Below the pieces are notes generated by a model. It saw only the letters and a list, made by a program, of their open reading frames with translations, did not search any database and was not told the DNA's origin. A program made the position numbers and the translations under genes. From positions 3,344 to 67,343 of IMG/VR virus record IMGVR_UViG_3300029720_000418: DNA of 64,000 nucleotides; one strand, 5' to 3'. Below are positions 3,120 to 49,000 of this stretch, one piece after another (the first letter of the stretch is position 1; each line of letters starts with the position of its first letter). Origin of the DNA: a virus.

Positions 3120-3329
3120 ATGATTAAAGCATTGAAGGAGTACAAAGACAAGGTATTGAAACCAGAAATAGCATGGCTGAAAAGACACTGGATTGGGTTC
3201 TTAGTGTATTTGGTAATATGCTTTATTACGGGGTTTGTATCAACGATGGTACGTAATATCAAAGAAAAGAAGAAGCATAATGAAGACGATTATTATGAAG
3301 ATCGTTATGGCAAAGAGGAGGAGTCCTAA
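3120..3329 (+). CDS. small membrane protein (69 aa)
   Basis: RBS GAAAGGAG. Central TM segment. The C-terminal EES is encoded by the terminator stem. Confidence 0.5.
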   Translation: MIKALKEYKDKVLKPEIAWLKRHWIGFLVYLVICFITGFVSTMVRNIKEKKKHNEDDYYEDRYGKEEES

Positions 3330-3345
3330 TGGACTCTTCTTTTTC
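3319..3345 (+). terminator. rho-independent terminator
   Basis: GGAGTCC-TAAT-GGACTC followed by TTCTTTTT. Confidence 0.55.
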
Positions 3346-3370
3346 GCGAAATTTACAAAGCCTATTATGA
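3343..3370 (+). promoter_or_regulatory. conserved promoter-like motif copy
   Basis: TTCGCGAAATTTACAAAGCCTATTATGA. Confidence 0.5.
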
Positions 3371-3400
3371 AAACATATAGGAAAGGAGACAAAATAATTT

Positions 3401-3478
3401 ATGAATGCAGTTATAGCAATATTGGCTGGCGCATTAATTTATGCGATCCTGAACAAGGTGGATAAGGATAAGAAATAG
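3401..3478 (+). CDS. 25-aa hydrophobic micro-peptide
   Basis: Has its own promoter copy (3343-3370), RBS GAAAGGAG and terminator. The terminator GAGAGCTACGGCTCTC is identical to the one after 2854-3030. Confidence 0.3.
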   Translation: MNAVIAILAGALIYAILNKVDKDKK

Positions 3479-3500
3479 GAGAGCTACGGCTCTCTTATTT

Positions 3501-3528
3501 TTCGCAAAATTTTCATTGGCTATTATGA
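3501..3528 (+). promoter_or_regulatory. conserved promoter-like motif copy
   Basis: TTCGCAAAATTTTCATTGGCTATTATGA. Confidence 0.45.
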
Positions 3529-3554
3529 AATAATATTTTTAAGGAGGGCTTAGT

Positions 3555-3758
3555 ATGAAAAAGGCTATTAAAATTATCGGAAAGATTACGAAATGGTATT
3601 TAATATTAGATGCGATTGTATGTGCATATATTGGAGTATGCCGGATGATCCATTTGGTTATGAAATATCCCCAAAAATCTATTCTGGAAATAGACGAAAT
3701 AGCTTTGGATGAGGCTGACGCTGAATTCAAAAAATATTATAACAAATATATTAAATAA
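3555..3758 (+). CDS. small membrane protein (67 aa)
   Basis: RBS TAAGGAGGG. N-terminal TM segment. Confidence 0.5.
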   Translation: MKKAIKIIGKITKWYLILDAIVCAYIGVCRMIHLVMKYPQKSILEIDEIALDEADAEFKKYYNKYIK

Positions 3759-3804
3759 GAGGGCTTCGGCTCTCTTATTTTTCAATAAGAAAGGAGATGA
3801 TCTA

Positions 3805-4584
3805 TTGATCAATGCAAAATTATTTCTCAAAAGACACTCTTCAACAATTTTAGCATGTCTTGGATGTGCAGGGGTTATAGTGACTTCTGTAACGGCTGTA
3901 CGAGCAACCCCAAAGGCTATTAAACTATTAGAAGAAGCCGAAGAAAACAAAGGATCTGAATTAACAACATGGGAAAAAGCCAAGACAACGACGAAAGCAT
4001 ATTTACCGTCGATATTGTTTGGTGTTTCAACCATTGCGTGTATTGCCGGTTCTTCGATTCTTTCATATAACACCCAGAAATCTATGGCAAGTGCATACGC
4101 TTTGATAAATCAATCGTATCGAGATTATCGTAGAAAAGCAAAAGATATTTACGGCGAAGATGCAGATAGAAAGATTCTTGATGCGATCATTGCTGAAAAA
4201 GCGAAGACTATGTACGTAGAAGCTCCTGGTATTTGTGATTGTGCGACCTTATACATCGACGAGAATCACGGAGAGAAACGATTGTTCTACGACGAATATG
4301 GCAAGCGATTCTTTGAATCAACGTTGGAGCAAGTTATATCAGCGGAGTATCATACGAACCGTAATTTTGTATTACGCGGATCACAGATGCTAAATGAATT
4401 CTATGGGTTCCTGGGTTTGGAACCTACTGATTTTGGTTGGGAAGCTGGATGGTGTGTTATGGATGAGTTTTATTGGATTGATTTTGATCATAGTGAAATT
4501 GAAATCGATGGCAAGAAATGTATCGTCATTCGGATGCCATGGGAACCTAAAATCGGATACGACGATGATAATTATTACTATTAA
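3805..4584 (+). CDS. paralog A of a two-TM membrane protein family (with 5150-5929 and 7534-8466)
   Basis: TTG start 8 nt after AAGGAG. Shares the N-terminal motif K-HS..IL..LG.AG..V.AA.ATPKA and a second TM. Also shares the C-terminal FYxxxGL...IGW domain. Confidence 0.6.
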   Translation: MINAKLFLKRHSSTILACLGCAGVIVTSVTAVRATPKAIKLLEEAEENKGSELTTWEKAKTTTKAYLPSILFGVSTIACIAGSSILSYNTQKSMASAYALINQSYRDYRRKAKDIYGEDADRKILDAIIAEKAKTMYVEAPGICDCATLYIDENHGEKRLFYDEYGKRFFESTLEQVISAEYHTNRNFVLRGSQMLNEFYGFLGLEPTDFGWEAGWCVMDEFYWIDFDHSEIEIDGKKCIVIRMPWEPKIGYDDDNYYY

Positions 4585-4612
4585 TTCGCGAAAACAACAT
4601 TTACTATTATGA
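4585..4612 (+). promoter_or_regulatory. conserved promoter-like motif copy
   Basis: TTCGCGAAAACAACATTTACTATTATGA. Confidence 0.5.
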
Positions 4613-4636
4613 AAAATGCAAAAGGAGGGTCTTAAT

Positions 4637-4801
4637 ATGAATAAGGCAGATTTGAAGTTTTTGAGAAAGGCAGGATTTAACATTGCTTTCGGAGTTATCG
4701 TGGGTAAAGAATTAGGCGAATTCGTTACGCAGGTAGCTTATCGATTTGCAATTAAAATGATGGCCAAGAAAACGCCAGAATCAACCAAGACTGAAGAGTA
4801 A
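4637..4801 (+). CDS. hypothetical small protein (54 aa)
   Basis: RBS AAAGGAGGG. Promoter copy at 4585-4612. Confidence 0.45.
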   Translation: MNKADLKFLRKAGFNIAFGVIVGKELGEFVTQVAYRFAIKMMAKKTPESTKTEE

Positions 4802-4890
4802 TTTTCAAATAGAGGATTCAATGGAAATATTGGGTCTTCTATTTTTTCAGCACGAAGACATCTGGAATCAATGATATTTTGATAGCGGGA

Positions 4891-4919
4891 TTCGCACGAA
4901 ATACATTGGCTATTATGGA
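4891..4919 (+). promoter_or_regulatory. conserved promoter-like motif copy
   Basis: TTCGCACGAAATACATTGGCTATTATGGA. Confidence 0.45.
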
Positions 4920-4936
4920 AAGGAGGTAAGCTATCT

Positions 4937-5110
4937 ATGAAAGAAAAGTTTAATTCAACGACAGTTTTGAGCGCCGTTGTAACTGCGATGGGAGTGATTG
5001 GAACATTACTTTCATTTAAGGTTCAGAACGATGATCGGGAACTGTTGAAGGAAGAATTAAAAGAAGAGCTTAGAGAAGAGCTTAGCAACGAAGATAAAGA
5101 GGAGTCCTAA
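4937..5110 (+). CDS. small membrane peptide (57 aa) with an EELKEELREEL acidic tail
   Basis: RBS AGGAGGTAAG. Promoter copy at 4891-4919. Ends in the GAGGAGTCCTAA terminator stem. Confidence 0.4.
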   Translation: MKEKFNSTTVLSAVVTAMGVIGTLLSFKVQNDDRELLKEELKEELREELSNEDKEES

Positions 5111-5149
5111 CACGGGCTCTTCTTTTATATTTGATAGGAGGAATCAAAC

Positions 5150-5929
5150 ATGAGTAAAGAATCATTTGCGAGATTTGTGAAAAGCACAAAAAGAGGTCTC
5201 GTAAAACACAGTCCGGAAATCTTAACCGGATTAGGAATCGCAGGAATGATATCATCTGTCGTTCTTGCAGCAAAAGCAACACCTAAAGCACTTCAGTTGA
5301 TTGAAGAAGCGAAGGATAAGGCGGATACAGACAAGCTTACAGTACCAGAAACAATCAAGGCAGCATGGAAGCCATATATTCCAGTTGTACTTACATGTGG
5401 TGCATCCGTAGCTTGTATCATTGGTGCCAATACGGTAAATACACGTCGTAATGCTGCTCTTGCTACAGCATATGAGCTCTCGAGAAATGCTCTGACCGAG
5501 TATAAGGAGCGTGTTGTAGAGGAGATCGGTAAGGAAAAGGAACAGAAGATACAGGAAAAGGTTGCTCAGAAAAAAGTAGACAATACACCTGTTACATCCG
5601 AGGTTATTGTAACTGGAGGCGGGGACATATTGTTCCTTGAACCTGTATCAGAGAGATATTTCAAATCCGATGTTGAGACTATTCGTAGAATCATCAACGA
5701 TTTGAACTATCGATTAATGAATGGCAGCGAGGAGTATGTATCGTTGAGTGATTTCTATGATGAAGTCGGTTTGACTCATACGGCAATCAGTAATGATATT
5801 GGGTGGAATTTGAATCATGATGGTCAGATATCGGTCAGCTTGCCCGCAACAAAGACAGACAAGGGAGAGCCATGCCTGATGTTGGATTATCATGTAGCAC
5901 CGCGGTACGATTATTCAAAATTATCGTAA
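5150..5929 (+). CDS. paralog B of the two-TM membrane protein family
   Basis: RBS GGAGGAAT. N- and C-terminal similarity to 3805-4584 and 7534-8466 is visible by eye. Confidence 0.65.
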   Translation: MSKESFARFVKSTKRGLVKHSPEILTGLGIAGMISSVVLAAKATPKALQLIEEAKDKADTDKLTVPETIKAAWKPYIPVVLTCGASVACIIGANTVNTRRNAALATAYELSRNALTEYKERVVEEIGKEKEQKIQEKVAQKKVDNTPVTSEVIVTGGGDILFLEPVSERYFKSDVETIRRIINDLNYRLMNGSEEYVSLSDFYDEVGLTHTAISNDIGWNLNHDGQISVSLPATKTDKGEPCLMLDYHVAPRYDYSKLS

Positions 5930-5957
5930 TTCGCGAAAAATACAAGCACTATTATGA
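5930..5957 (+). promoter_or_regulatory. conserved promoter-like motif copy
   Basis: TTCGCGAAAAATACAAGCACTATTATGA. Confidence 0.5.
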
Positions 5958-5992
5958 CAGAGTAAAAAATTATATTTAAGGAGGACGAAACT

Positions 5993-6298
5993 ATGTCGAG
6001 AAACAATGTTAAGAACGAGGAAGTAAAGGATGTCGAGGTTGTCGACGAGAAGGATGTTGAAGTTGTAGACAACAACGCAACTGATGAAAACTCAAAGGCT
6101 GATGCCAAGGAGGAATCAAAGGTTAAGAAGATCTTAAATAAGATCAAGAAACCGGTTTCCTACATTGGTGCGGCAGTTGGTGGATTCGCAGTAGCGATGT
6201 TGATCTCAGCAGCAAGACAGGACGAAGATGATCAGGATGGACTGTACTACCTTGAAGGAGACAAAGAGGATGACAGTAGCAAAACAACTGAAGAGTAA
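5993..6298 (+). CDS. acidic/lysine-rich small protein with C-terminal TM segment
   Basis: RBS TAAGGAGG. Promoter copy at 5930-5957. Confidence 0.5.
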   Translation: MSRNNVKNEEVKDVEVVDEKDVEVVDNNATDENSKADAKEESKVKKILNKIKKPVSYIGAAVGGFAVAMLISAARQDEDDQDGLYYLEGDKEDDSSKTTEE

Positions 6299-6377
6299 TT
6301 TGTACGATCAGTCAGAAGGGTGATGCCTATACAAGGCATTTCCCTTTTTCTTTTTTTTTTTGAAGGAGGTTATGTCT

Positions 6378-6569
6378 ATGTATAGATACATATTTGAAGG
6401 TCAGGTTTCAGAATCAAACCATCTTATTACAAATAGATGGAGAGGTGAAACTTGGGCAAATTCAGAAGCCAAAGCCAGAAATAATTTGGCTTATCAATTT
6501 AAGAAAGCCAGTAACAGACCATCGATGGCAAAAATCGTGTTACATGGTCCGATTGTGAAGGCAAGCTAA
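6378..6569 (+). CDS. hypothetical protein (63 aa)
   Basis: RBS GAAGGAGG with an ATG at spacing 8. Confidence 0.45.
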   Translation: MYRYIFEGQVSESNHLITNRWRGETWANSEAKARNNLAYQFKKASNRPSMAKIVLHGPIVKAS

Positions 6570-6582
6570 AGGAGGGTGACAG

Positions 6583-7203
6583 ATGAGTTTAGACATTGAA
6601 TGCAAACCTAACTCACACAAGGCAAAGCAGGAGGCAGCAACAAAAAAGGGTGCTCCGAAGATTAAAAAGGTAGTATCCGGAACTGTCAAAACAAAAAAGA
6701 AGAAAGGAGTAAGTAAGCTTAAGGAAGCATTGATCGCTGATAGTGCAAAAGACGTTGGTTCTCATGCATTTTTGGATGTACTGATTCCAGCAATGAAGAA
6801 GGCATTTTCTGATATTATCAAGGACGGTGTCGACATGATTTTGTACGGCGAAACTCGTGGACGGAAAAGTAGCTCAAACGCTTCTTATGTGTCATATCGA
6901 ACATATTCGGACAGAGATCGAGATAGAAGAGATGATCGCAGATCTTCAAATTCTATATTTAATTTGGACGATATTATCTTGGAATCTCGAGATGATGCAA
7001 ATGATGTATTAGATGCAATGGGCGATCTGATTGAAACTTATGAATCTGTGAGCGTTGCTGATTTATATGATTTGATCGGCATCGATGTGTCCGGTAGATA
7101 TACGTACAACGACTATGGATGGACGAGTCTTAGAAATGCAGATATTGTCTCAGTACGTGATGGATATTGGATCAAGCTTCCTAGACCAAGACCAATTAAG
7201 TAG
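6583..7203 (+). CDS. hypothetical protein: K-rich N-terminus, RD-repeat linker, C-terminus related to the paralog family
   Basis: RBS AAAGGAGGG. The C-terminal LYDLIGID...YNDYGW resembles FYDEVGL...IGW of 5150-5929. Confidence 0.55.
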   Translation: MSLDIECKPNSHKAKQEAATKKGAPKIKKVVSGTVKTKKKKGVSKLKEALIADSAKDVGSHAFLDVLIPAMKKAFSDIIKDGVDMILYGETRGRKSSSNASYVSYRTYSDRDRDRRDDRRSSNSIFNLDDIILESRDDANDVLDAMGDLIETYESVSVADLYDLIGIDVSGRYTYNDYGWTSLRNADIVSVRDGYWIKLPRPRPIK

Positions 7204-7214
7204 GAGAGATACAC

Positions 7215-7529
7215 ATGAATGATATTTTGAAATCTGAATATTCAGAACAGTTTGATAAGGAACGAAAGAGCAGGATTGAAATTTCGTTTCATAAATATGG
7301 TTCAGCAAGAGATAACTTTGCAAGCGGCAGAGTGGACGCACTTGCTACTGCTGAGTTATGTCTGGACGCATTTAAGAAAGATCATAACAGCGAGCATTTG
7401 ATCGATGCTGCAAATTATTTGATGTTCCGGTTTAAGTATCCTATGCCGGGAGATCATTTTACACCGACAGACTCGAGCGGAAGTGTCGGAACAGTTGGTA
7501 CACCAATAAATATGGAAAAGGAGATTTAA
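7215..7529 (+). CDS. hypothetical protein (104 aa)
   Basis: RBS TAGGAGAG. Tightly packed with its neighbours. Confidence 0.5.
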   Translation: MNDILKSEYSEQFDKERKSRIEISFHKYGSARDNFASGRVDALATAELCLDAFKKDHNSEHLIDAANYLMFRFKYPMPGDHFTPTDSSGSVGTVGTPINMEKEI

Positions 7530-7533
7530 TATT

Positions 7534-8466
7534 ATGAAGAATGATTTGAAAAATAAGATGACTCGGTCATTATGTAAGGCAAAGTTTAAGGTTAAAAAGC
7601 ATAGTCCAGAGATCTTGGTTGTTGCAGGCGTGATTGGTACGGTGACAAGTGCTGTGATGGCATGTCGCGCTACAACAAAGCTGAGTAAGATTCTCGATGA
7701 GGCGAAAGAGACAGAGAAGACAATCTCTGAAGGAATGGAAAGTGGATATATCGCAGATCAGGAATACACAGAGGAAGACGGCAAGAAGGATCTCAGAATC
7801 ACAAAGGTTCAGACTGGATTAAAGGTTGTAAAGCTGTATGCACCAGCTGTTATCCTTGGCGGATTATCAATCACAGCCATGCTGACATCTAACAATATTC
7901 TCAGAAAGAGAAACGTATCACTTGCAGCGGCATATGCAGCAGTAGATAAGAGTTTCAAGGAATATCGTGGCAGAGTAAAGGAACGTTTCGGTGAAGAGCT
8001 GGACAAGGAGCTTCGTTACAACATCAAGGCGAAGGAAATCGAAGAAGTAGTTAAGGACGAGAAGACCGGTAAGGAAAAGGTTCAGAAAAAGATCGTGAAC
8101 GTTTCTGATTTTGATGATTGCAGCGAGTACGCAAAGTTTTATGATTGCGGTTGCACTGGATGGACGAAAGATCCAGAATTGAATTTGATGTTTCTTAGAA
8201 AACAGCAGGATTTCTTGAATGATCGGTTAAAGGCTGAGGGTTATCTGTTCTTGAATGACGTGTATGATGCTCTTGGCATTCAGAAAACAAAGATTGGTCA
8301 GATTGCAGGTTGGATTTACGATGAAAAGAATCCAGTCGGAGATAACTATATCGATTTCGGAATTTATGACACTCATCGTGAGGCAAATAGAAGATTTGTA
8401 AACGGTCTTGAGAGAACAATTCTTCTTGATTTCAATTGTGATGGTGACATTCTGGACATGATGTGA
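7534..8466 (+). CDS. paralog C of the two-TM membrane protein family
   Basis: RBS AAAGGAG. Has the KKHSPEILVVAGVIG N-terminus and the IGQIAGW C-terminal motif. Confidence 0.65.
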   Translation: MKNDLKNKMTRSLCKAKFKVKKHSPEILVVAGVIGTVTSAVMACRATTKLSKILDEAKETEKTISEGMESGYIADQEYTEEDGKKDLRITKVQTGLKVVKLYAPAVILGGLSITAMLTSNNILRKRNVSLAAAYAAVDKSFKEYRGRVKERFGEELDKELRYNIKAKEIEEVVKDEKTGKEKVQKKIVNVSDFDDCSEYAKFYDCGCTGWTKDPELNLMFLRKQQDFLNDRLKAEGYLFLNDVYDALGIQKTKIGQIAGWIYDEKNPVGDNYIDFGIYDTHREANRRFVNGLERTILLDFNCDGDILDMM

Positions 8467-9929: not shown

Positions 9930-9948
9930 TAGGAAAGGAGCTTATATA

Positions 9949-12900
9949 ATGGCTGATTTTTATAGAATAGCTTATCAGAATAAGCAAGGCATGATAGAAA
10001 TATTTCCTAAATTCATTATTGGGAATAGCTCCGATCTTATGATACGAGGTGGCGATTTTTATGCTGTATGGTTGGAAGACAAAGGTCTGTGGTCTACTGA
10101 TGAGCAAGACGTCATTCGAATGATCGACAGAGATCTGGATAAGTATGTCACAGATAATAGTCCAAGGTTCGATACGAACACAAAGATTAAATATATGTGG
10201 GATGCAGAATCTGGATCGATTGACCGATGGCATAAGTATTGTCAGAAACAACAAAGGGACTCATTTCACATGTTGGATGAAAAACTTATATTTTCCAATA
10301 GTGAGACAAACAAGAAAGATTATGCCAGCAAACGATTGAATTATCCATTGGAACCTGGTAAATGTCCAGCTTATGAGAAGATTATATCAACGATATATTC
10401 GGAGGAAGAAAGACATAAGATTGAATGGGCAATCGGGTCTATTGTTACCGGCGATTCCAAGACAATACAGAAATTTCTTGTATTGTATGGCGCTGCTGGT
10501 ACAGGTAAATCAACCATCTTGAACATTATCCAACAGTTATTTGAGGGTTACTATTCGGTATTTGATGCGAAGGCATTGGGGTCGAGTAGTAACTCTTTTG
10601 CGTTAGAGGCATTTAAGTCGAACCCGCTGATTGCAATTCAGCATGATGGAGATCTGTCTAAGATCGAAGATAATACGAGATTAAATAGTCTTGTATCTCA
10701 TGAGATGATGACTGTGAATGAGAAATTCAAGTCAACCTATGCCAGCCAGTTTAAGTGTTTTCTATTCATGGGTACAAACAAGCCAGTACGGATCACAGAT
10801 GCAAAATCAGGTCTTATACGAAGATTGATTGATGTGTCACCTTCCGGAAAGAAAGTTAGCCCTAAAGAATACAACACTTTAATGGAGCAGGTTAAGTTTG
10901 AGCTTGGTGCTATTGCTTGTCATTGCAGAGATGTATATTTGGAAGATCCTGGGTATTATGACACATATCTTCCAATGTCAATGATGAGTGCATCAAATGA
11001 TTTCTACAACTTCATTATTGATTCGTTTCATGTATTCAAAAAAGAAGACGGAACAACGTTAAAGGCAGCATGGGAAATGTACAAAACATATTGTGATGAG
11101 GCAAAAGTTCCATATCCATTTTCTCAGAGAAGTTTTAAAGAAGAGCTTAAAAACTATTTTTGGGATTTTGACGAGGAGATTGATGAGGATGGATCTAAGA
11201 TAAGAAACATTTATCACGGATTTCGAACCGAGAAATTTGAGACTTTTAGTCACAGAAAAAGAGAGGAAAAAAATGTGACTAACTCAGAATCTTGGCTGCA
11301 ATTCATGAATGCTGCAGAAACAACAAAGAGCTTTGATATGGAATGTGAATCATGCCCAGCTCAATATGCAACGGACAAAGAAACCCCAAGTAAATCTTGG
11401 AACCGAGTCACAACCACACTCAAAGACATCGATCCATCGAAACTTCATTATGTCAAGGTTCCAGAGAATCACATAGTTATTGACTTTGATTTGAAGGGCG
11501 ATGACGGCAAAAAATCGTTTGAAAAGAATTTGGAGGCTGCTGCGAAGTGGCCACCTACGTATGCGGAGCTTAGTAAAAGTGAGGCAGGGATCCATCTTCA
11601 TTATATTTATAATGGGGATGTATCAAAATTAAGTCGTATATACGATGAAAACATTGAAATAAAGGTTTTTACAGGTAAGAGTTCTCTTAGACGAAAACTT
11701 ACCAAGTGCAATAATTTATCTGTTGCGATGATAAGCTCCGGACTACCTATGAAAGGAGAAAAGATGATAGATAAAAATATTGTACAATCTGAGAAAGGTC
11801 TCAGAACAACAATTAAAAAATGTCTTAATAAAGAAGTCCACGCTGGTACAAAATCCAATGTGGACTTTATTTATAAGATTTTGGATGATGCTTACAATGG
11901 CGGTCTTCATTATGATGTATCAGACATGAAGAATGAGGTATTAGCATTTGCTGCTAACAGTACCAATCAGGCACCATATTGTATCAAGCTGGCGAGTAAG
12001 ATGAAATTCAAGTCAGAAGAGATATCAGACGGCAAAGCGGATGAAAATGCACCATCGATATTTTATGATATTGAGGTATTTCCGAACTTATTCTTGGTCA
12101 ATTGGAAAATCCAGGGAGAAGGAAACCCCGTAGTTCGAATGATCAATCCAAGTCCAAAAGACATCGAGGATCTGATCAAATACAATCTTGTAGGGTTCAA
12201 CTGTCGAAGATATGATAACCATCTCATCTATGCAAGACTTATGGGATATACGAATGAGGAACTATATAACTTGTCTCAGAAAATTATATCTGGAGATAGA
12301 AATGCGTTCTTTGGGGAAGCTTACAATTTGTCTTATACAGATGTGTATGACTTTGCATCCGCTGGAAACAAAAAGAGCTTGAAGAAGCTTGAAATTGAGA
12401 TGTCGAACAAAGCAAATGACCCTACATCAAAAATGGATGATGGTCTTAGAAAGATGCTCAAGAACATTAAGCATCAGGAGTTGGGTCTGCCTTGGGACCA
12501 GCCGGTTCCGAAAGAATTATGGACCAAAGTTGCAGAGTATTGTGATAATGATGTCATTTCGACCGAGGCAGCATTCTTATATTTGTCTGCGGATTGGACA
12601 GCTAGACAGATTCTGGCGGACTTAGCGGGTATGACTGTAAATGACACGACAAACACTCTTACAACCAGAATTATATTTGGTCGGGAGAAAAATCCACAGA
12701 GTCAGTTCAATTACAGAGATTTGGCAGAACCGGTCACAGAAATGACATTGGAGATGCAGGAATTTTTAAAAGAAGCTTGTCCAGAAATGATAGCTGAACC
12801 ACATGGTGAAGCAAAAAGCATGTTACCTTATTTTCCAGGGTATAAGTACGAAGCCGGTAAATCAACATATCGAGGAGAGGTTGTTGGCGAAGGCGGATAT

Positions 12901-14106
12901 GTATATTCTGAACCAGGTATGTACGGAAACGTAGCATTACTTGATATTGCATCTATGCATCCTCATAGTGCTATCGCAGAGGTATTGTTTGGTGTTAAAT
13001 TTACACAGGCATTTAGAGATATTGTTGAGGGTCGTGTAAGTATCAAACATCAGGCTTGGGATGAGGTAAATCACATGCTTGATGGTAAACTTACGCCTTA
13101 TATTCAGAAAGTCATTGATGGTGAAATGACAGCTAAGCAGCTTGCAAATGCATTGAAGACTGCAATCAACTCTGTATACGGATTAACTTCAGCAAGCTTC
13201 AGCAATGCGTTTAGAGATCCGCGTAATAAGGACAATATTGTAGCTAAACGTGGTGCTTTATTCATGATTGACTTGAAGAATGAGGTGCAGGCAAGAGGAT
13301 TTACAGTTGCTCATATCAAGACGGACTCAATCAAGATTCCAGACGCAACGCCAGAAATCATACAGTTCGTTATGGATTTCGGTAAAAGATATGGTTATAC
13401 ATTTGAGCATGAGGCTACGTATGACAGAATGTGCCTCGTAAATGATGCAGTTTATATCGCAAAGTACAAAGACGCAGAATCATGTCAGGCTATGTATGGT
13501 TATGCGCCAGGAGATAATGCAGATCATGGTAGAGATTGGACTGCAACAGGTAAGCAGTTCGCCGTACCATATTTATTCAAGACATTGTTTAGTCATGAAG
13601 ATATTGAGTTCAACGATATGTGTGAGACGTTTGCAGTGTCTAAGGGTGATTTATATTTAGATATGAATGAGAACTTGCCTGACGTGGCTAAGTACGAAAT
13701 TGAATTAGAGAAGCTTGAGGAACAGTACAAGAAAGGTAAAATCTCGGATGTTATATTTGAATCCGAATCAGCGGGTCTTCCGGAAAAGATCGCAGAAGGA
13801 CATGAAATGCAGTTTGTAGGGAGAGTTGGTCAGTTCTGTCCGATTATGTCTGGAAACAATGGCGGAATTTTATACCGTGTCTGCGATGGTAAGAATTATG
13901 CTGCACCAGGATCGAGTGGATATCGATGGTTGGAATCTGAGACAGTGAAGAGATTAGGTTTGACTGATAACATTGATCGCTCATTCTATGATGCATTAGT
14001 AAACGATGCAGTAGATAGTATATCACAGTATGGAGATTTTGAGTGGTTTGTATCCGACGATCCATATGTAATGAATTTGGACACGTCGAGAATCCCATTC
14101 AAATAA
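9949..14106 (+). CDS. fused replicase: SF3/D5-like P-loop NTPase + AEP primase-polymerase + family-B DNA polymerase
   Basis: Walker A LYGAAGTGKST at ~10478-10516. AEP motifs IVIDFDLKGDDG and SEAGIHLHYIY at ~11469-11612. PolB Exo I FYDIEVFPN at ~12061, Exo II FNCRRYDNH, Exo III YCDNDV. Motif A LLDIASMHPHS at ~12940, motif B KTAINSVYG at ~13158, motif C IKTDS at ~13316. Confidence 0.8.
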   Translation: MADFYRIAYQNKQGMIEIFPKFIIGNSSDLMIRGGDFYAVWLEDKGLWSTDEQDVIRMIDRDLDKYVTDNSPRFDTNTKIKYMWDAESGSIDRWHKYCQKQQRDSFHMLDEKLIFSNSETNKKDYASKRLNYPLEPGKCPAYEKIISTIYSEEERHKIEWAIGSIVTGDSKTIQKFLVLYGAAGTGKSTILNIIQQLFEGYYSVFDAKALGSSSNSFALEAFKSNPLIAIQHDGDLSKIEDNTRLNSLVSHEMMTVNEKFKSTYASQFKCFLFMGTNKPVRITDAKSGLIRRLIDVSPSGKKVSPKEYNTLMEQVKFELGAIACHCRDVYLEDPGYYDTYLPMSMMSASNDFYNFIIDSFHVFKKEDGTTLKAAWEMYKTYCDEAKVPYPFSQRSFKEELKNYFWDFDEEIDEDGSKIRNIYHGFRTEKFETFSHRKREEKNVTNSESWLQFMNAAETTKSFDMECESCPAQYATDKETPSKSWNRVTTTLKDIDPSKLHYVKVPENHIVIDFDLKGDDGKKSFEKNLEAAAKWPPTYAELSKSEAGIHLHYIYNGDVSKLSRIYDENIEIKVFTGKSSLRRKLTKCNNLSVAMISSGLPMKGEKMIDKNIVQSEKGLRTTIKKCLNKEVHAGTKSNVDFIYKILDDAYNGGLHYDVSDMKNEVLAFAANSTNQAPYCIKLASKMKFKSEEISDGKADENAPSIFYDIEVFPNLFLVNWKIQGEGNPVVRMINPSPKDIEDLIKYNLVGFNCRRYDNHLIYARLMGYTNEELYNLSQKIISGDRNAFFGEAYNLSYTDVYDFASAGNKKSLKKLEIEMSNKANDPTSKMDDGLRKMLKNIKHQELGLPWDQPVPKELWTKVAEYCDNDVISTEAAFLYLSADWTARQILADLAGMTVNDTTNTLTTRIIFGREKNPQSQFNYRDLAEPVTEMTLEMQEFLKEACPEMIAEPHGEAKSMLPYFPGYKYEAGKSTYRGEVVGEGGYVYSEPGMYGNVALLDIASMHPHSAIAEVLFGVKFTQAFRDIVEGRVSIKHQAWDEVNHMLDGKLTPYIQKVIDGEMTAKQLANALKTAINSVYGLTSASFSNAFRDPRNKDNIVAKRGALFMIDLKNEVQARGFTVAHIKTDSIKIPDATPEIIQFVMDFGKRYGYTFEHEATYDRMCLVNDAVYIAKYKDAESCQAMYGYAPGDNADHGRDWTATGKQFAVPYLFKTLFSHEDIEFNDMCETFAVSKGDLYLDMNENLPDVAKYEIELEKLEEQYKKGKISDVIFESESAGLPEKIAEGHEMQFVGRVGQFCPIMSGNNGGILYRVCDGKNYAAPGSSGYRWLESETVKRLGLTDNIDRSFYDALVNDAVDSISQYGDFEWFVSDDPYVMNLDTSRIPFK

Positions 14107-14137: not shown

Positions 14138-14614
14138 ATGGAAGTAACATTTGCACCGAGAGGTATCTTGCAGATTAATGATGCAAGAATTATTTTTAGA
14201 AATTTTAGAGGAGCTGGACGGGCAGCATACAATCGTGAAGGTGATAGAAACTTTGCAGTATCAATCGATTCGACCGAGTTGGCTGATGAGCTGGTGGCAG
14301 AAGGATGGAATGTTAAGATCAAAGATGCCACAGAGGATGGAGAGATGCCAAGAATGCATCTTCCTGTAAAGGTAAAGTTCAACAACAAGGGGCCTCATGT
14401 GTATCTGAAGACTGGGGATAGAGTAAACAAGCTGGACGAGGATTCAGTAGCCATCCTTGATGATATTGATATTCTCAGCGTCAATCTTGACATTCGCCCT
14501 TATGATTGGGAAGTGAATGGAAAAACTGGACGGGCAGCATATTTACAGTCAATCGAGGTCATTCAGAACATCGATCGGTTTGCAGCCGGATATGACATGC
14601 CAGATGAGGAGTAA
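14138..14614 (+). CDS. putative ssDNA-binding protein (DUF2815-like pattern)
   Basis: Lies directly downstream of the polymerase. A duplicated GRAAY motif and the N-terminal pattern resemble phage SSB-like proteins. RBS AAAGGAG. Confidence 0.5.
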   Translation: MEVTFAPRGILQINDARIIFRNFRGAGRAAYNREGDRNFAVSIDSTELADELVAEGWNVKIKDATEDGEMPRMHLPVKVKFNNKGPHVYLKTGDRVNKLDEDSVAILDDIDILSVNLDIRPYDWEVNGKTGRAAYLQSIEVIQNIDRFAAGYDMPDEE

Positions 14615-15916: not shown

Positions 15917-16609
15917 ATGAAAAAAGAATTGATCTCTGGTGGGTGTATACTATGTGACGGTCTTACATCGGAAGAACTGATACAATCATTGGATAGACAC
16001 ATATTTCCACGAAAAAAAATTTATGATTTAAGCAAGCTTGAAGTCCATTTTGGCCGGGAATTATTTAATAGATTATGTAATGATGACATAATTAATTATG
16101 ACTCTATTAATCATTCATTTACAGTTACGGTATGTGAAATTCCTTGTCGTTTATCATACGAATGTCCATCTTATGGATATTGTGTATATTTGAAGCATGA
16201 TCACGAAGGCCAGATGGACTCGACGATAGGATTGTTTCAGGATGATATTAAAAGACAGCTTAATGCAGCATTTGGAAGATCGTCTGTACCTATTGATATA
16301 TCCGGAAGAATTAAAAAAGTTATCTTCAACCCACCTGCAACTATTATATTCTGGAAAGATAGTAGTAAAACAGTAGTGAAATGCGACGGCGAAGCTTTTG
16401 ATCCTGAGAAGGGAATGGCTATGGCAATCAGCCGCAAGGTGTTAGGTGATTCCTATGGATATTATAATATATTTGAAAAGTGGTGCAAGAAGTACAAGGA
16501 GCCGGGTAAAAGATCAGGCAAATATCCATGGGGAACAACTCCACAGGAAGTAGCGGCTAAGTATATGCCACTGCCTAATACAGAATCAGGTGATTCAGAT
16601 GCCGACTAA
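15917..16609 (+). CDS. hypothetical protein (230 aa)
   Basis: RBS GGAGGG. Cys-containing N-terminus. Confidence 0.55.
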   Translation: MKKELISGGCILCDGLTSEELIQSLDRHIFPRKKIYDLSKLEVHFGRELFNRLCNDDIINYDSINHSFTVTVCEIPCRLSYECPSYGYCVYLKHDHEGQMDSTIGLFQDDIKRQLNAAFGRSSVPIDISGRIKKVIFNPPATIIFWKDSSKTVVKCDGEAFDPEKGMAMAISRKVLGDSYGYYNIFEKWCKKYKEPGKRSGKYPWGTTPQEVAAKYMPLPNTESGDSDAD

Positions 16610-17846
16610 GCCGTTTCTGTACGATTATCAGATGGATGCTGTAAATCATATGTTCAATGGGTGCATTCTCAATGGTGGTGTTGGATCGGGAAAGAGTAGA
16701 ACCGGATTATATTACTACTTCAAAGAACAAGGCGGTAGTATAAATCCAGACTATAAACCGATGAAAAAACCAAAAGATTTATATATTATCACAACCGCTA
16801 TGAAACGGGACAAGCTTGAATGGGATGGAGAATTAGCAAACTTCTTATTGTCCAGAGACGCTAAGAAGAACACATTGAATGGCAACGTAAAAATCGTTGT
16901 TGATTCGTGGAACAGAGTAAAAAAATACATGGCTGTGGAAAATGCGTTCTTCATATTTGACGAACAAAGGGTTGTTGGATCGGGAACTTGGGTTAAGGCA
17001 TTTTTAAAGATAGCCAAAAACAATGATTGGATATTATTATCAGCAACAGCTGGCGATAAATGGCCTGATTATATTCCGGTATTTATAGCAAACGGTTTTT
17101 ATAAAAATCGATCTGAGTTTATTCGGGAACATATTGTATATTCTCGATATACAAAATATCCACAGATTGATAAGTATTTGAACGTCGGACGTCTAATTCG
17201 ATTAAGGAATAAAATTCTGATTGATATGGAATTTAAACGTCCAACGACAGCTCATCACAATGATATTTATGTAACATATGATGTCACTAAGTACAAATCG
17301 GTTGTAAAAAATAGATGGGATCCGTACAAAAATGAACCCATCCAGCAAGCATCAAGTCTTTGTTATATTCTGAGAAGAATAGTGAATGAAGACGAATCCA
17401 GAATAGTAGCTCTATTGGAGATTCTTGAGAAGACTCCTAGAGCTATTATTTTTTATAATTTTGATTACGAGCGAGAGATGCTATTACATGTTTTCAGCAA
17501 CCACGATGAAACAGATAAAGACTTTGAAGTAGCGGAATGGTCTGGACATGCCCACCAACCTGTGCCAGGAACAAAGCGATGGGTATATTTGGTGCAGTAC
17601 ACGGCTGGATGCGAAGGCTGGAATAGTATTAAGACAGACACGATTATATTCTACTCACAGAATTACAGTTATAAGGTTGTGACACAGGCTGCCGGTCGAA
17701 TTGATCGTCTGAATACGCCATTCAAAGATCTATATTATTATCATCTGAAAAGTCGAAGTGGAATTGACCTCGCCATTAGCAAAGCATTGAAGGAGAAGAA
17801 AAAGTTCAATGAAGCAAAGTGGTGTAAAAATTCATTCGCGAAATAA
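16599..17846 (+). CDS. SF2 (DEAD/DEAH-like) helicase
   Basis: Motif I GGVGSGKS, motif II FIFDEQR, motif III LSATAG, motif VI QAAGRIDR. The start could instead be the GTG at 16590. Confidence 0.7.
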   Translation: MPTKPFLYDYQMDAVNHMFNGCILNGGVGSGKSRTGLYYYFKEQGGSINPDYKPMKKPKDLYIITTAMKRDKLEWDGELANFLLSRDAKKNTLNGNVKIVVDSWNRVKKYMAVENAFFIFDEQRVVGSGTWVKAFLKIAKNNDWILLSATAGDKWPDYIPVFIANGFYKNRSEFIREHIVYSRYTKYPQIDKYLNVGRLIRLRNKILIDMEFKRPTTAHHNDIYVTYDVTKYKSVVKNRWDPYKNEPIQQASSLCYILRRIVNEDESRIVALLEILEKTPRAIIFYNFDYEREMLLHVFSNHDETDKDFEVAEWSGHAHQPVPGTKRWVYLVQYTAGCEGWNSIKTDTIIFYSQNYSYKVVTQAAGRIDRLNTPFKDLYYYHLKSRSGIDLAISKALKEKKKFNEAKWCKNSFAK

Positions 17847-30192: not shown

Positions 30193-30483
30193 GTGAAAGA
30201 GAATAAGTTTCAGGCAGGATTAAAAAAGAAACTTAAAACGATGTTCCCCGGATGTATAGTAACCAAACTTGATTCGAGTGATATCCAAGGCATTCCAGAT
30301 TTACTTGTCTTATATAAAGATAAATGGGCTGCCTTAGAAGTCAAGAAAGAGGCGAAAGCTTCTCATAGACCGAATCAAGATTACTATGTTGAGAAAATGA
30401 ATGAGATGTCATTTTCCAGATTTATATTTCCAGAAAATGAGGAGGACGTATTAAATGAACTTCGTGAAACATTCAAATCTTGA
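30193..30483 (+). CDS. VRR-NUC-like PD-(D/E)xK nuclease
   Basis: GIPDLLVLY...AALEVKK...Q matches the VRR-NUC core. GTG start after AAGGAGGGG. A long structured leader runs from promoter 30055-30081. Confidence 0.5.
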   Translation: MKENKFQAGLKKKLKTMFPGCIVTKLDSSDIQGIPDLLVLYKDKWAALEVKKEAKASHRPNQDYYVEKMNEMSFSRFIFPENEEDVLNELRETFKS

Positions 30484-31009
30484 GGGGCTTCATGCTCCAT
30501 TCAGCGCAAGCCAGTCGGCATGGCTTAGATATGACACTGAAAAAGCACTAACCGTATATGATAATATGCGGGCAAAAGAAAGAGGAACAAAGCTTCATGA
30601 TTGGGCTAAGAGAACTATTGACTTAGGAATCAAGCAGCCCAGATCAAATAAAACCTTGTATGCGTATGTCAATGATGCTATTGGTTTTAAGATGAGTACC
30701 GAAGTGGTGTTATATTATTCGCCATATTTCTTTGGTACAGCTGATGCTATATCATTTAGGAATAATAAATTAAGAATACATGATCTTAAGACTGGAAAGT
30801 CCGGTCATATGGAGCAGCTTGAAGTATACGCTGCTCTTTTTTGTTTGGAGTACAAAATCAAACCAGGAGATATACAGATGGAGTTGCGATTATATAAGGA
30901 CAATGAAGTAATTGTTCATGAGCCAACTGCTGAAGATATTTTACCGATTATGGATAAGATCATGTCTCTTAACAAAGCATTGGAAAACTTTGATGATAGG
31001 GAGGTGTAG
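30455..31009 (+). CDS. PD-(D/E)xK-family nuclease-like protein
   Basis: FGTADAISF...LRIHDLKTGKS...EQLEVY fits a D...D/ExK core. Start uncertain, in the range 30455-30479. Confidence 0.45.
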   Translation: MNFVKHSNLEGLHAPFSASQSAWLRYDTEKALTVYDNMRAKERGTKLHDWAKRTIDLGIKQPRSNKTLYAYVNDAIGFKMSTEVVLYYSPYFFGTADAISFRNNKLRIHDLKTGKSGHMEQLEVYAALFCLEYKIKPGDIQMELRLYKDNEVIVHEPTAEDILPIMDKIMSLNKALENFDDREV

Positions 31010-45689: not shown

Positions 45690-46073
45690 ATGCAGGTGAT
45701 CACATTTAAGCAGAAGGGCGATTTCTCCAAACTGAATAGTTTCTTTGAAAAAATTAAAGAAACTGTCAAAATAGGAGATCTCGATAAGTATGGACGAGCT
45801 GGTGTCGAAGCACTTGCATCTGCCACACCAAAGGAATCTGGAAAAACTGCAGATTCTTGGTACTACACAATTGAACATGAAAATGGAAAATCGTCGATTA
45901 ATTTTCTTAATTCGAACATTAATGACGGTGTTCCGATTGCAATCATATTACAGTACGGGCATGGTACTGGAACTGGAGGCTGGGTCGAAGGAAGAGATTA
46001 TATCAATCCTGCGGTTCAGCCTCTTTTTGATAAGATTGCCGACGATGCTTGGAAGGAGGTTACTAGATTATGA
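45690..46073 (+). CDS. hypothetical protein (127 aa)
   Basis: Lies between the lysin and the tape measure. Its stop overlaps the tape-measure start. Confidence 0.5.
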   Translation: MQVITFKQKGDFSKLNSFFEKIKETVKIGDLDKYGRAGVEALASATPKESGKTADSWYYTIEHENGKSSINFLNSNINDGVPIAIILQYGHGTGTGGWVEGRDYINPAVQPLFDKIADDAWKEVTRL

Positions 46074-49000
46074 GTAAGCAGGTTGACGAAAGAGTTGTTA
46101 CGATGCAATTCGACAACAGGCAGTTTGAAGACAACGTTAAAACTTCCATGTCTACCATAGATAAACTGAAAAAAGCGTTAAATTTCGAAAAAGCTGGCGA
46201 AGGTCTCGAGAAAGTCAAAGATTCAATAAACTTAAACAAAATCAATATTACTGGATTAAGCGGAGCTATCGACCAAGTAAATGCTAAATTCTCAGCACTT
46301 CAGGTAATAGGTGTTACGGCGTTATCAAATATTACAAATCAAGCGATGAGTATGAGTAAGAAAATGATTTCAGCTCTTACTATAAATCCTGTTAAGGATG
46401 GCTTGAAAGAGTATGAAACACAGATGAATGCGGTTCAGACAATCCTGGCAAATACTCAAAAAGAAGGCACTAACGTAAAAATTGTAAATAAAGCATTAGA
46501 TGAATTAAACGCTTATGCTGATAAAACAATATACAATTTTACAGAGATGACTCGTAATATTGGTACGTTCACAGCTGCTGGCGTTAAACTTGATACGTCC
46601 GTATCTGCCATCAAAGGTATTGCTAACTTGGCTGCTATATCTGGCTCGACGTCACAGCAAGCATCAACGGCAATGTACCAGCTTTCCCAAGCACTTGCAT
46701 CTGGTACTGTAAAACTTATGGACTGGAACTCAGTTGTTAATGCTGGTATGGGTGGTCAGGTATTTCAGGATGCGTTAACAAGAACATCAGAACATTTACA
46801 AACAGGTGCAAAAGCGGCGATCGAAGCAAAAGGCTCATTTCGGGAATCACTGCAAACAGGATGGCTCACGACTGAAGTTCTTACACAAACGCTTGATCAG
46901 TTTTCAACTGCCGCAGATACGCAGGCTGAATACGAAGCTGCTGTGAAGAAATTCGTTAGTCAGGGATATAGTAAAGAAGAGGCGAAGCAATTAGCCGATA
47001 TGGCAAAAACAGCAGGCGAAGCTGCAACAAAGGTAAAGACATTTACACAGCTTATTGACACATTAAAGGAAGCTCTTGGTTCTGGTTGGACAACAACATG
47101 GCGTTTAATTATCGGCGATTTCGAGGAAGCTCGAAACATGTGGACGAACGTAAGTGATGTACTCGGTGGGTTTATCAATAAAATGTCTGATGCTAGAAAT
47201 GCCGTTCTTGAAAGTGCGATGGGAAAAGGTTTATCTGGTATTGCAGACAAAATCAATTCTATTGTTGAACCGTTTCAGAAAGCCGCATCAACTGTTACAA
47301 AAACTGTAGACGCAGTTTCTGATTTAGGCGATGTTGTTGATGATGTTATACTCGGAAAATTTGGAAATGGAACCGAAAGAGTAACTGCTCTTACTGAAGC
47401 TGGACTAAACTATTATAGGGTTCAAAATAGAGTAAATGAAGTATTGAATAATAGCTTTCGATTCACAGAAAAACAAATAGAGGAACAGGATAAACTCCTT
47501 GGAATAAACGCAAAATCAACAGACGTAACAAAAGAAGAAACAAAAGAAACTGATAAATTAGCAGATTCCAAGAAAGAATTGATTAAACAATTTGCTAATA
47601 TGTCAGATGCTCAATTGCGTTCTATAGGACTTAGTCCATCAGAAATAGCATCGTTTCGAGAATTGAGAAATATGGCAGACATGCTTGGCATGTCTTTGGA
47701 TGATGTCATCGATAATATGGATCATTTGAATGGACGATGGCTTCTTATGCAATCATTTTCCAACATAGGGCATAATATCATAACGATATTCAAATCCATT
47801 GGGGAGGCGTGGAAGGAAGTATTTCCTCCAGTAACTGCTGATAATTTGTTCAGTCTCTTAGCGGGATTTTACAAATTGACAACAAGTATGAAAATAACAG
47901 ACGAAGAAGCAGATAAATTAAAACGAGCCTTCAAGGGTCTTTTTGCAGTATTGGATCTGGTTAGCACTCTTGTTGGCGGTGGTTTGAGATTAGCATTAAA
48001 AGTTACGTCTTACATACTTAGTCTTTTCAATTTATCGTTATTGGATGTTGCGGCAATTCTCGGTGATGTCCTTGTTAAATTCAGAGATTGGGTTAAAGGT
48101 AATAACCTAATTACAAAAGCATTCAAAACTATGGCTCCATATTTGAAGGAGTTTGTTTTATTAATCGTCGATGGCATTATTGCTATCAAGGATTGGGTCG
48201 TTGCCAACGAAAAAATAACTCAAGGGTTTAAGAATATTCTTTCATATCTTAAAGAAGCTGGAGCGGGATTCAAGGCATGGATCGAAGGTGCTAGAGAAGC
48301 TGAGAATATACCAGTCTACATAATTCAGGGATTGGTAAACGGTTTGAAGAACGGAATTTCAACTGTGGCATCTATCGTTATAGAACTTGCAAAATCAATA
48401 ATCGAAACTATCTGCGGTGTGCTTGGTATTCATTCACCTTCGGTCGTGTTCTTTGCAATAGGTTCATTTATTGTTCTTGGATTGGTTGCAGGAATACAAT
48501 CTGAACTTCCGGGCGTTTGGGAAACTGTAAAATCACTTGCAACAGGATTGGTAGAAATAATAAGCAATATTAATTTCGGCGCAATATTTGCAGGAATGAT
48601 GGGACTGGGAACAATACTGTTGTTGAAGAAGATAGCTGACGCGTTTGAAATAATATCTGGACCTATAGAGGGTGTTAGTCATATTCTGAATGGCTTTGGT
48701 TCAATTCTTGATAGTGTCGCTAAAAACATTAAAGCTTCTGCGTTTAAGAAAAAGTCAGTTGCTATTCGAAATTTTGCAATTTCATTAGGAATATTGGCCG
48801 CATCTTTATTGGTAATATCAAAAATACCAGTACAAGATTTGATAAAAGCTGGAGTAGCTATCACTGTAATGGCTGGAGTGCTTATTGGGTTGTCATATGC
48901 AATAAGCGTTCTCAATGTGGTGACTAAAGGCGGACTTGATACATCAGGTAGGAAAATCGCAGTTATGCTTGTTGGTGTTGGCGTTGCGTTATATATGATG

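Follow-up and report, generated by a model that had tools for sequence, protein, structure and literature searches.

The replicase locus

The DNA analysed here, hereafter the window, is a viral stretch of 64,000 nucleotides. In the ORF listing and translation, 9949..14106 is a single unbroken ORF with an ATG start that encodes 1385 amino acids (hereafter the query), and the features in and around this gene are collected in Table 1. The preceding ORF stops at 9929, upstream of the replicase gene. A strong ribosome-binding site precedes the replicase ORF. An earlier note, made from the letters, had described the product as an SF3 helicase, an archaeo-eukaryotic primase (AEP) and a proofreading family-B DNA polymerase (PolB) fused in that order. 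The motifs that it quoted were all located in the translation, namely LYGAAGTGKST (aa 179-189), IVIDFD (509-514), SEAGIHLHY (544-552), FYDIEVF (705-711), YCDNDV (864-869), LLDIASMHPHS (997-1007), KTAINSVYG (1070-1078) and KTDS (1124-1127). The ORF, its motifs and its homologues showed the fusion to be real. The order of domains given in the note was right, the exonuclease is intact, and every catalytic motif is conserved. Helicase matches covered aa 120-435, AEP matches approximately 465-600 and PolB matches 683-1385, all within the one ORF.

Table 1. Features of the replicase gene and its downstream neighbours, in window coordinates; domain assignments are predictions on the basis given.
Feature	Position	Strand	Basis and remarks
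Shine-Dalgarno GGAAAGGAG	9932..9940	+	Read from the sequence; 8 nt 5' of the ATG at 9949
Whole gene, HelPrimPolB / GP55-type four-in-one replicase (probable)	9949..14106	+	ORF, PHROG 4210, colinearity with 1706 gp55 and FP_oengus gp28; stop codon 14104-14106
N-terminal region, aa 1-119	9949..10305	+	Family-conserved P20, D29, G34, F37, Y38, A39, W48, D60 (invariant alignment columns)
SF3 (D5/P4-type) helicase, aa 120-435, with helical C-terminal part	10306..11253	+	DUF5906, TIGR01613, D5-like PHROGs, motifs
Linker, aa ~436-464	11254..11340	+	Poorly conserved, variable length, indels in alignment; pLDDT <50
PriS-like AEP primase catalytic domain, aa ~465-600	11341..11748	+	Motifs, Foldseek, GP55 mutagenesis
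Alpha-helix domain (aHD), aa ~601-688	11749..12012	+	Four long helices; Y655 and F667 present
PolB 3'-5' exonuclease subdomain, aa ~689-900	12013..12648	+	Motif conservation, phrog_1252, Foldseek
PolB palm, fingers and thumb, aa ~901-1385	12649..14103	+	Pol II matches, Foldseek, motifs
ssDNA-binding / annealing protein, 1706 gp66 homologue, same replication module	14138..14614	+	Pfam PF24083 2e-39; phrog_4787; tblastn to 1706 gp66 region 2e-20
SF2 helicase, homologue of 1706 gp67 and FP_oengus gp35	16590..17846	+	phrog_62 8e-56; 61% identity to FP_oengus, 38% to 1706

The replication module is syntenic with those of Lactococcus phage 1706 (gp55, gp66, gp67, gp69, gp75) and Faecalibacterium phage FP_oengus. 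The 1706 neighbours that match those of the query are an ssDNA-binding protein, an SF2 helicase, an exonuclease and a large RNA polymerase. The closest homologue from a cultured phage is FP_oengus gp28 (Oengusvirus), 57.5% identical over 99% of the protein and annotated as 'helicase/polymerase' or 'DNA polymerase'. Some of the insertions found in the query's clade are absent from it; the entire early/replication module of FP_oengus is colinear with that of the query, including three DUF6353 paralogues upstream. The source is best read as an uncultured gut siphovirus related to FP_oengus.

Full-length relationship to GP55

The query aligned with 1706 gp55 colinearly over aa 3-1363 in BLASTP (857 bits, 38% identity). 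A helicase, primase and PolB in a single chain were reported for this protein in 2016 (Kazlauskas et al. 2016, PMC4889955), the group was named HelPrimPolB in 2020 (Kazlauskas et al. 2020, PMC7544198), and its type member, GP55, was purified in 2025 as a 'four-in-one replicase' that acts as a UTP/dTTP-dependent helicase, an RNA primase, a family-B polymerase and a 3'-5' exonuclease (Zhang et al., NAR 2025, PMC12205980). As the GP55-type design has been described, named and tested, the query adds a further gut-phage member to a family already known. The design that the earlier note called very unusual is real and had already been described, and the closest analogue of the query is therefore GP55 itself, with which it is colinear, rather than the primer-independent polymerases (piPolBs) or D5-like primase-helicases that had been proposed. 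The remark that a helicase preceding a primase is atypical agrees with the literature, in which 94% of primase-helicase fusions have the primase at the N-terminus (PMC4889955).

GP55 has the same order of domains as the query (SF3 helicase, PriS-like AEP, aHD, PolB with exonuclease) and the same unusual polymerase motif C, H-x-K-T-D-S. Substitutions in GP55 abolished unwinding (K189A), primer synthesis (D509A), exonuclease activity (D712A/E714A) and polymerisation (D949A), and its aHD, two helix pairs between AEP and PolB, was required for primase activity, with Tyr655 and Phe667 essential (PMC12205980). All of these residues are kept in the query, where they correspond to K187, D514, D707/E709, D999, Y655 and F667, respectively. 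Domain order and full-length colinear homology place the query in HelPrimPolB. The two proteins differ in host, that of the query being probably gut Firmicutes-like, and at AEP position 545, which is Glu in the query and Gly in GP55. The query is also 68 residues longer because of four clade-specific insertions in the polymerase part that are absent from GP55, at aa ~819-839 (exonuclease), 929-961, ~1178-1192 and ~1245-1285. These insertions and the Gly-to-Glu change in AEP motif II are the only local peculiarities.

The only other single-chain design of this kind reported is Pas55 of Actinoplanes phage phiAsp2, which joins an SF3 helicase, a DnaG primase and PolA (PMC4889955). Its TOPRIM/DnaG primase and family A polymerase are not homologous to those of the query, and Pas55 appears to be an analogous solution and not a relative.

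N-terminal region and helicase

Conservation was assessed in 112 representatives that are mutually no more than 50% identical. From approximately residue 44 the family aligns with the segment preceding the ATPase core of solved primase-helicases. When the 112-sequence profile was compared with PDB sequences, its positions 44-439 matched residues 380-774 of 7ola_A (E 1.7e-17), and the NrS-1 helicase was matched at 2e-6.

The helicase motifs comprise a Walker A at G181-T189 (G181-x2-G-x-G-K187-S-T), Walker B D233, sensor-1 N277 and the arginine finger R291/R292. These residues are invariant or nearly so, with K187, N277 and R292 found in 112/112 representatives. Pfam DUF5906 matched aa 179-292 above its cutoff (E 1.7e-13, 51.7 bits against 27.6), TIGR01613, the P4-family primase C-terminal region, matched aa 137-394 below its cutoff (6e-17, 61 bits against 108.7), and D5-like primase PHROGs matched across aa 120-435. 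The motif set is that expected of an SF3 helicase of the D5 / P4 gp-alpha type, which this segment is predicted to be.

Primase and alpha-helix domain

The AEP motifs are D512-x-D514 (motif I), S542..G547-x-H549, with H551 (motif II), and E570 (motif III); R581/R582 are conserved as well. D512, D514, S542, H549, E570, R581 and R582 occur in 112/112 representatives. Motif II of the query reads S-K-S-E-A-G-I-H, with Glu545 where 109/112 relatives have Gly. Curated AEP profiles gave no match above threshold: Pfam Prim-Pol (PF09250) scored E 0.24 for the query and 0.0046 at best, and was seen, always sub-threshold, in 8/11 members. The match of phrog_3022 to the region had an E of 0.0025, NCBIfam and Pfam scans of the AEP segment fell short of significance for an AEP assignment, and PDB sequence searches with 11-sequence and 112-sequence full-length profiles returned no AEP. 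Sequence profiles do not reach so divergent a domain, and its assignment consequently rests on motifs, fold and the mutagenesis of GP55.

The AlphaFold2 (AF2) model of the core has a beta-alpha-beta-beta-beta topology. Foldseek searches of the PDB with the AEP segment gave just six hits at E < 0.01 (4e-4 to 4e-3), all of them entries for the phage NrS-1 primase-polymerase N300, and every further match lay above 0.1; the AEP catalytic fold of this enzyme (NrSPol) is the query's only significant AEP structural match. Motifs I-III and the modelled RRM-like beta-sheet core are consistent with membership of the AEP superfamily, save at position 545. NrSPol and primase-helicases of the D5 / P4 gp-alpha types have an SF3 helicase related to that of the query; unlike the query, they carry the primase N-terminal to the helicase and have no PolB. 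A single AEP site primes and polymerises in NrSPol, which has a helix-bundle domain instead of the aHD (PMC12205980). The AEP module of GP55 is an RNA primase only and does not use dNTPs (PMC12205980), which tells against the 'primase-polymerase' label that the earlier note gave the AEP. The note's inventory of helicase, AEP and PolB was sound, and overlooked a fourth domain, the aHD. Four helices were modelled at aa 615-683 with pLDDT 85-95, and Y655 and F667 are at least 90% conserved, which points to an aHD of the HelPrimPolB / GP55 type.

Replacement of Gly545 by Glu, at a position where Gly is kept by 109/112 representatives, raises the alternative of a degenerate member in which the AEP is impaired, so that the protein would serve just as helicase and polymerase and priming would come from elsewhere; the FP_oengus homologue is indeed annotated merely as 'helicase/polymerase'. 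Against this, nothing is altered at D512, D514, H549 and E570, which serve in metal binding and catalysis, or at Y655 and F667 of the aHD, and no second primase turned up in those window ORFs that were scanned. The SEAG variant is common to clusters P0001, P0002 and P0045, and hence persists across the sub-clade with everything else conserved. Loss of priming is improbable on this evidence, and a working primase remains the preferred reading.

Polymerase and exonuclease

The exonuclease motifs are D707/E709 (Exo I), N751..Y755-D756 (Exo II) and Y864..D868 (Exo III), and all 112 representatives carry D707, E709, Y755, D756, Y864 and D868. Polymerase motif A contains D999, motif B K1070..N1074..Y1077-G1078 and motif C H1122-x-K1124-T-D1126-S. 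Conservation is again complete (112/112) for D999, K1070, N1074, Y1077, G1078, H1122 and D1126, and K1124 occurs in 109/112. Where the canonical motif begins with Asp (DTDS) the query has Lys (KTDS), and this Asp is missing throughout the family, including the active GP55; a divergent motif C without the first Asp is, together with a divergent KxY motif, a feature of HelPrimPolB membership.

The phrog_1252 DNA polymerase profile matched aa 683-1176 (4e-44), and E. coli Pol II was matched at E 2e-5 by sequence and 3.6e-6 with a profile. The AF2 models were of moderate quality (pLDDT 62 and 70.5), with low confidence after motif C. Foldseek matched 109 PDB PolB structures at E <= 1e-3 with probability 1.00, and the alignments covered the whole model. 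Exo I-III, motifs A-C and the modelled PolB fold indicate a putative proofreading family-B polymerase with a deviant motif C.

Motif C without its first Asp is also seen in piPolBs (PMC7544198), as would be expected if this were a primer-independent or protein-primed polymerase, kin to piPolB or phi29, with an accessory AEP domain. That reading is very improbable. GP55 depends on its AEP domain and on NTPs for de novo synthesis, and with the D509A substitution it cannot start chains (PMC12205980). The best 50 structural matches were all RNA/DNA-primed PolBs (archaeal B, ASFV, Pol alpha and Pol II) and the sequence matches were Pol II and Pol alpha, with no phi29- or piPolB-type enzyme among either. 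In published phylogeny HelPrimPolB falls among the primed PolBs, within their EpsilonN-like clade, and from its full-length homology to gp55, the sole basis used, we infer that the query's polymerase belongs to the HelPrimPolB branch of that clade.

Gene integrity and extent of the family

A check for frameshifts or merged genes found none, and the possibility that assembly joined two or three adjacent genes (a helicase-primase and a polymerase) into one ORF, for which nothing speaks beyond some shorter database entries, is effectively refuted: an independent cluster (P0001; 273 member sequences from several contigs) is identical to the query at 1367/1374 aligned residues with zero gaps and differences confined to the last ~10-20 residues, the same full-length gene occurs in 252 finished phage genomes, of the 150 best representatives at 50% identity 111 measure 1200-1550 aa and have their middle domain in the same position, the short entries begin and stop at scattered positions like fragments, and GP55 could be produced and purified as one chain of 1317 aa. 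Natural split variants were also considered; the boundaries of the 39 representatives below 1200 aa are scattered and these look like fragments. The seemingly split gene of Streptomyces phage Bing (two tblastn pieces) is an intact 1350-aa gene and a small separate AAA-ATPase ORF.

PHROG 4210 matched end to end with 1969 bits (query aa 3-1376, profile positions 2-1293 of 1304), tblastn found 252 phage records with at least 80% of the protein covered, and matches at E <= 1e-10 extended to more than 8000 clusters at 90% identity, the limit of the search. At 50% identity the clusters number approximately 465. By these sequence measures the level of matching is far beyond chance. Gut-clade relatives 65-99% identical to the query were among the matches listed in the cluster searches. 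Proteins annotated as 'DNA primase/polymerase' in actinobacteriophages (Gordonia, Arthrobacter, Streptomyces, Rhodococcus and Curtobacterium phages) have the same full-length architecture, 44-49% identity to the query and, like it, invariant catalytic residues. They differ in an insertion of ~18 aa before the AEP core, in the absence of the gut-clade insertions and in their high G+C hosts. Matches to a Proteus phage and Lactobacillus phiadh covered the helicase part only, and these are not family members.

Proposed function and significance

The gene most probably specifies a four-in-one replicase of the GP55 (HelPrimPolB) type, which serves a tailed phage from a gut-type community as its replicative enzyme (probability roughly 0.9). 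The basis here is architecture, homology, catalytic-residue conservation, fold support and synteny; it is from GP55 that the four activities are known and which residues are essential, and by homology we infer the same activities, nucleotide preference and oligomeric state for its 38%-identical orthologue. The SF3 helicase (aa ~120-435) would hydrolyse NTP (UTP/dTTP in GP55) and unwind the duplex, giving strand displacement. On the exposed single strand the PriS-like AEP (aa ~465-600) and the four-helix aHD (~601-688) would make short RNA primers de novo, which the family-B polymerase (aa ~689-1385) would extend with dNTPs while its 3'-5' exonuclease proofreads. Together with the adjacent ssDNA-binding protein, the replicase probably supplies most of the phage's own replication machinery.

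Discovery value is small, since the single-chain helicase-primase-polymerase replicase and the enzymology of its type member are already published. The gain is in annotation, where the name GP55-type / HelPrimPolB four-in-one replicase can be given with confidence to a gene that public records list just as 'hypothetical protein', 'EcfA2' or plain 'DNA polymerase'. A self-priming, strand-displacing, proofreading enzyme is of practical interest for isothermal DNA amplification, and diverse members such as the query are candidates to screen for better amplification properties. More tentatively, and with low odds, the gut-phage sub-clade may represent a variant of the GP55 replicase that differs in function, marked by the four insertions in exonuclease, palm and thumb and by the Gly545-to-Glu change. 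If so, its members could differ from the lactococcal enzyme in the specificity of primer initiation, in processivity, in the partners they bind or in oligomeric state. The cluster counts at both identity levels show that this type of replicase is abundant in human-associated phages.

Integrity of the gene and its known relatives

The replicase gene is a single unbroken ORF of 1385 codons that starts with ATG. A Shine-Dalgarno sequence, GGAAAGGAG, lies 8 nt 5' of this codon, and the preceding ORF ends at 9929. All eight motifs quoted in the earlier note were found in its translation, in the order stated there. A check for a frameshift or a merger of separate genes revealed no artefact. PHROG 4210 aligned with the protein end to end (residues 3-1376 to profile positions 2-1293 of 1304, 1969 bits). 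A tblastn search of 50,697 phage records matched 261, with at least 80% of the protein covered in 252; the matches were to phages of Arthrobacter, Gordonia, Streptomyces, Rhodococcus, Curtobacterium, Microbacterium, Lactococcus and Faecalibacterium, and to human gut and oral contigs. At least 8000 clusters in a collection of 5.8 billion proteins matched at E <= 1e-10, and alignment with the best of these, P0001 (273 member sequences), gave 1367 identities over 1374 positions and no gaps. When only the middle segment (aa 436-700) was compared by phmmer with 1.84 billion 50%-identity representatives, 465 proteins were matched. Among the best 150 of these, 111 had lengths of 1200-1550 aa and carried the segment at about positions 440-700, and the remaining entries had scattered, fragment-like ends. 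The full-length matches, the gap-free P0001 and the consistent lengths show that this gene is normally a fusion and is conserved as such.

The protein joins an already known replicase family, and its exact architecture is already in the literature. Among primase-helicase fusions, 94% carry the primase N-terminally (Kazlauskas et al. 2016, PMC4889955). The group name HelPrimPolB comes from Kazlauskas et al., NAR 2020 (PMC7544198), who assigned the group to the EpsilonN-like PolB clade as a divergent member, noted that its motif C and KxY motif are unusual, and described it as common in metagenomes. Its type member, GP55 of Lactococcus phage 1706, has been purified and four activities demonstrated (Zhang, Lu, Zhu and Huang, NAR 2025, PMC12205980). 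In that work, the helicase was UTP/dTTP-dependent and inactive as K189A. RNA primers were made jointly by a PriS-like domain and a newly described alpha-helix domain, preferentially at 5'-CCAAC-3' with a GTP start and without use of dNTPs, and priming was lost in D509A, Y655 and F667 mutants. The family-B polymerase was inactivated by D949A and the 3'-5' exonuclease by D712A/E714A, and strand displacement needed the helicase domain. GP55 was a dimer by SEC-MALS, fully replicated ssM13 de novo, and had more than 1000 homologues, mainly from human-associated phages (PMC12205980). The earlier note had called the design very unusual and had placed it nearest to piPolBs and D5-like primase-helicases. 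Both the rarity claim and the choice of relatives were wrong, because the family is already described, named and biochemically characterised (PMC4889955, PMC7544198, PMC12205980); GP55 is colinear with the protein (residues 3-1363, 38% identity, 857 bits).

Domain composition and conservation

The helicase module was recognized by Pfam DUF5906 (aa 179-292, 51.7 bits against a cutoff of 27.6) and, under its cutoff, by TIGR01613, the P4-family primase C-terminal region (aa 137-394, 6e-17). The C-terminal halves of several D5-like primase PHROGs aligned to aa 120-435. With a profile of 112 family sequences, the solved primase-helicase 7OLA was matched in its helicase half (1.7e-17), as was the helicase domain of NrS-1 (2e-6). 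For the C-terminal module, phrog_1252 matched aa 683-1176 (4e-44) and E. coli Pol II was a sequence-level match. The AlphaFold2 model built for aa 680-1385 (pLDDT 70.5) matched family-B polymerases in the PDB, 109 of them at E <= 1e-3 and probability 1.00, in alignments covering both the exonuclease and polymerase parts. The best 50 of these 109 were all RNA/DNA-primed enzymes (archaeal PolB, ASFV, Pol alpha, Pol II).

The primase is the weakest of the modules by sequence. Pfam Prim-Pol stayed under threshold: 8 of the 11 family members scanned gave a match, the best at E 0.0046, and family profile searches found no archaeo-eukaryotic primase (AEP) among PDB sequences. The AlphaFold2 model of aa 436-700 (pLDDT 62) has a beta-alpha-beta-beta-beta core bearing the DxD and HxH motifs, followed C-terminally by a confident four-helix domain. 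In Foldseek comparisons with the PDB, only the top six matches had E < 0.01, and each of them was to the AEP domain of the primase-polymerase from phage NrS-1; all others had E > 0.1. Model confidence was low for aa 465-505, yet A471, Q472, W484 and H500 are invariant, and this stretch is probably a structured portion of the primase domain; the genuinely variable linker is about aa 436-464. The helicase-primase-PolB reading of the earlier note was essentially borne out by DUF5906, the NrS-1 AEP fold match, phrog_1252 and the 109 PolB structures.

Conservation was assessed in an alignment of the protein with 111 full-length representatives of at most 50% pairwise identity. Strong purifying selection on each of the four catalytic centres argues that all are active, a prediction from sequence. 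Polymerase motif C reads H-x-K-T-D-S, with Lys in place of the canonical first Asp in 109 of 112. AEP motif II, SKSEAGIH, carries Glu545 where 109 of 112 representatives have Gly, the first of the motif; this variant is common to a small sub-clade comprising the protein and clusters P0001, P0002 and P0045. Compared with GP55, the protein has an insertion within the exonuclease domain (aa ~819-839), one preceding the palm (aa 929-961) and two more at aa ~1178-1192 and ~1245-1285. These insertions and Glu545 are minor features.

By homology with GP55, for which each step has been shown, the helicase module would unwind DNA and support strand displacement, the AEP and alpha-helix domains would lay short RNA primers on exposed ssDNA, and the PolB module would extend and proofread them. 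The modules may work together, in cis or in trans, in an oligomer joined via the helicase domain.

Features of the window and of the replicase
Feature	Window position (strand)	Identical in 112/112	GP55 residue (aligned residue)
Replicase gene	9949-14106 (+)		
Helicase		G186, K187 (Walker A), N277 (sensor 1), R292 (arginine finger)	K189 (K187)
AEP; priming residues of GP55		D512, D514, S542, H549, E570, R581, R582	D509 (D514), Y655 (Y655), F667 (F667)
Glu545 codon	11581-11583		
Exonuclease		D707, E709, Y755, D756, Y864, D868	D712/E714 (D707/E709)
Polymerase		D999, K1070, N1074, Y1077, G1078, H1122, D1126	D949 (D999)
DUF6353/phrog_2152 paralogues	3709-4584, 5150-5929, 7534-8466 (+)		
184-aa ORF	30455-31009 (+)		
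991-aa protein	31013-33988 (+)		
2313-aa ORF	46070-53011 (+)		

Genome setting and relatives

Taken as a whole, the window looks like the genome of a tailed phage. All genes are on the + strand, G+C is about 38%, GC skew is positive, and large terminase, portal, protease/capsid and tail genes are present; a scan of the 64 kb found no tRNA genes. The 2313-aa ORF within the tail-gene region is presumably the tape-measure protein.

The replicase belongs to a gut-metagenome clade, with relatives 65-99% identical among the matches listed. The closest cultured phage is Faecalibacterium phage FP_oengus, whose replicase is 57.5% identical. The window is colinear with FP_oengus across gp09, three DUF6353 paralogues, gp20, gp25/26, gp28 (the replicase), gp35 and gp54, and with 1706 across gp43, gp51, gp55, gp66 (ssDNA-binding protein), gp67 (SF2 helicase), gp69 (exonuclease) and gp75 (large RNA polymerase). 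The three DUF6353 paralogues upstream of the replicase likewise form a triplet in FP_oengus (gp15, gp18, gp22), and 1706 has a single homologue (gp51). The 991-aa protein shares 39% identity with 1706 orf75 and scored 1209 bits against PHROG 4291 ('RNA-dependent RNA polymerase'); from Pfam it showed only C-terminal HTH/sigma-70 region-4-like motifs. It is probably a single-subunit phage RNA polymerase with an RdRp-like two-barrel architecture and a fused DNA-binding HTH. The 184-aa ORF directly 5' of it is a homologue of the 'exonuclease' 1706 gp69 and FP_oengus gp54 (44-51% identity).

Streptomyces phage Bing has an intact 1350-aa primase/polymerase gene (3206-7258 of its record) and, about 2.3 kb upstream, a separate 151-aa 'AAA-ATPase' ORF (483-938) that resembles the N-terminal part of the replicase and may be a partial duplication of it. 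Two full-length homologues, P0081 and P0164, are named 'energy-coupling factor transporter ATP-binding protein EcfA2' by JGI, a mis-annotation due to the Walker A motif. Four homologues of 67-73% identity (P0209, P0097, P0109 and P0182) lie on contigs of 130-405 kb, which suggests that they are prophage copies integrated into bacterial genomes; such copies could reveal the host.
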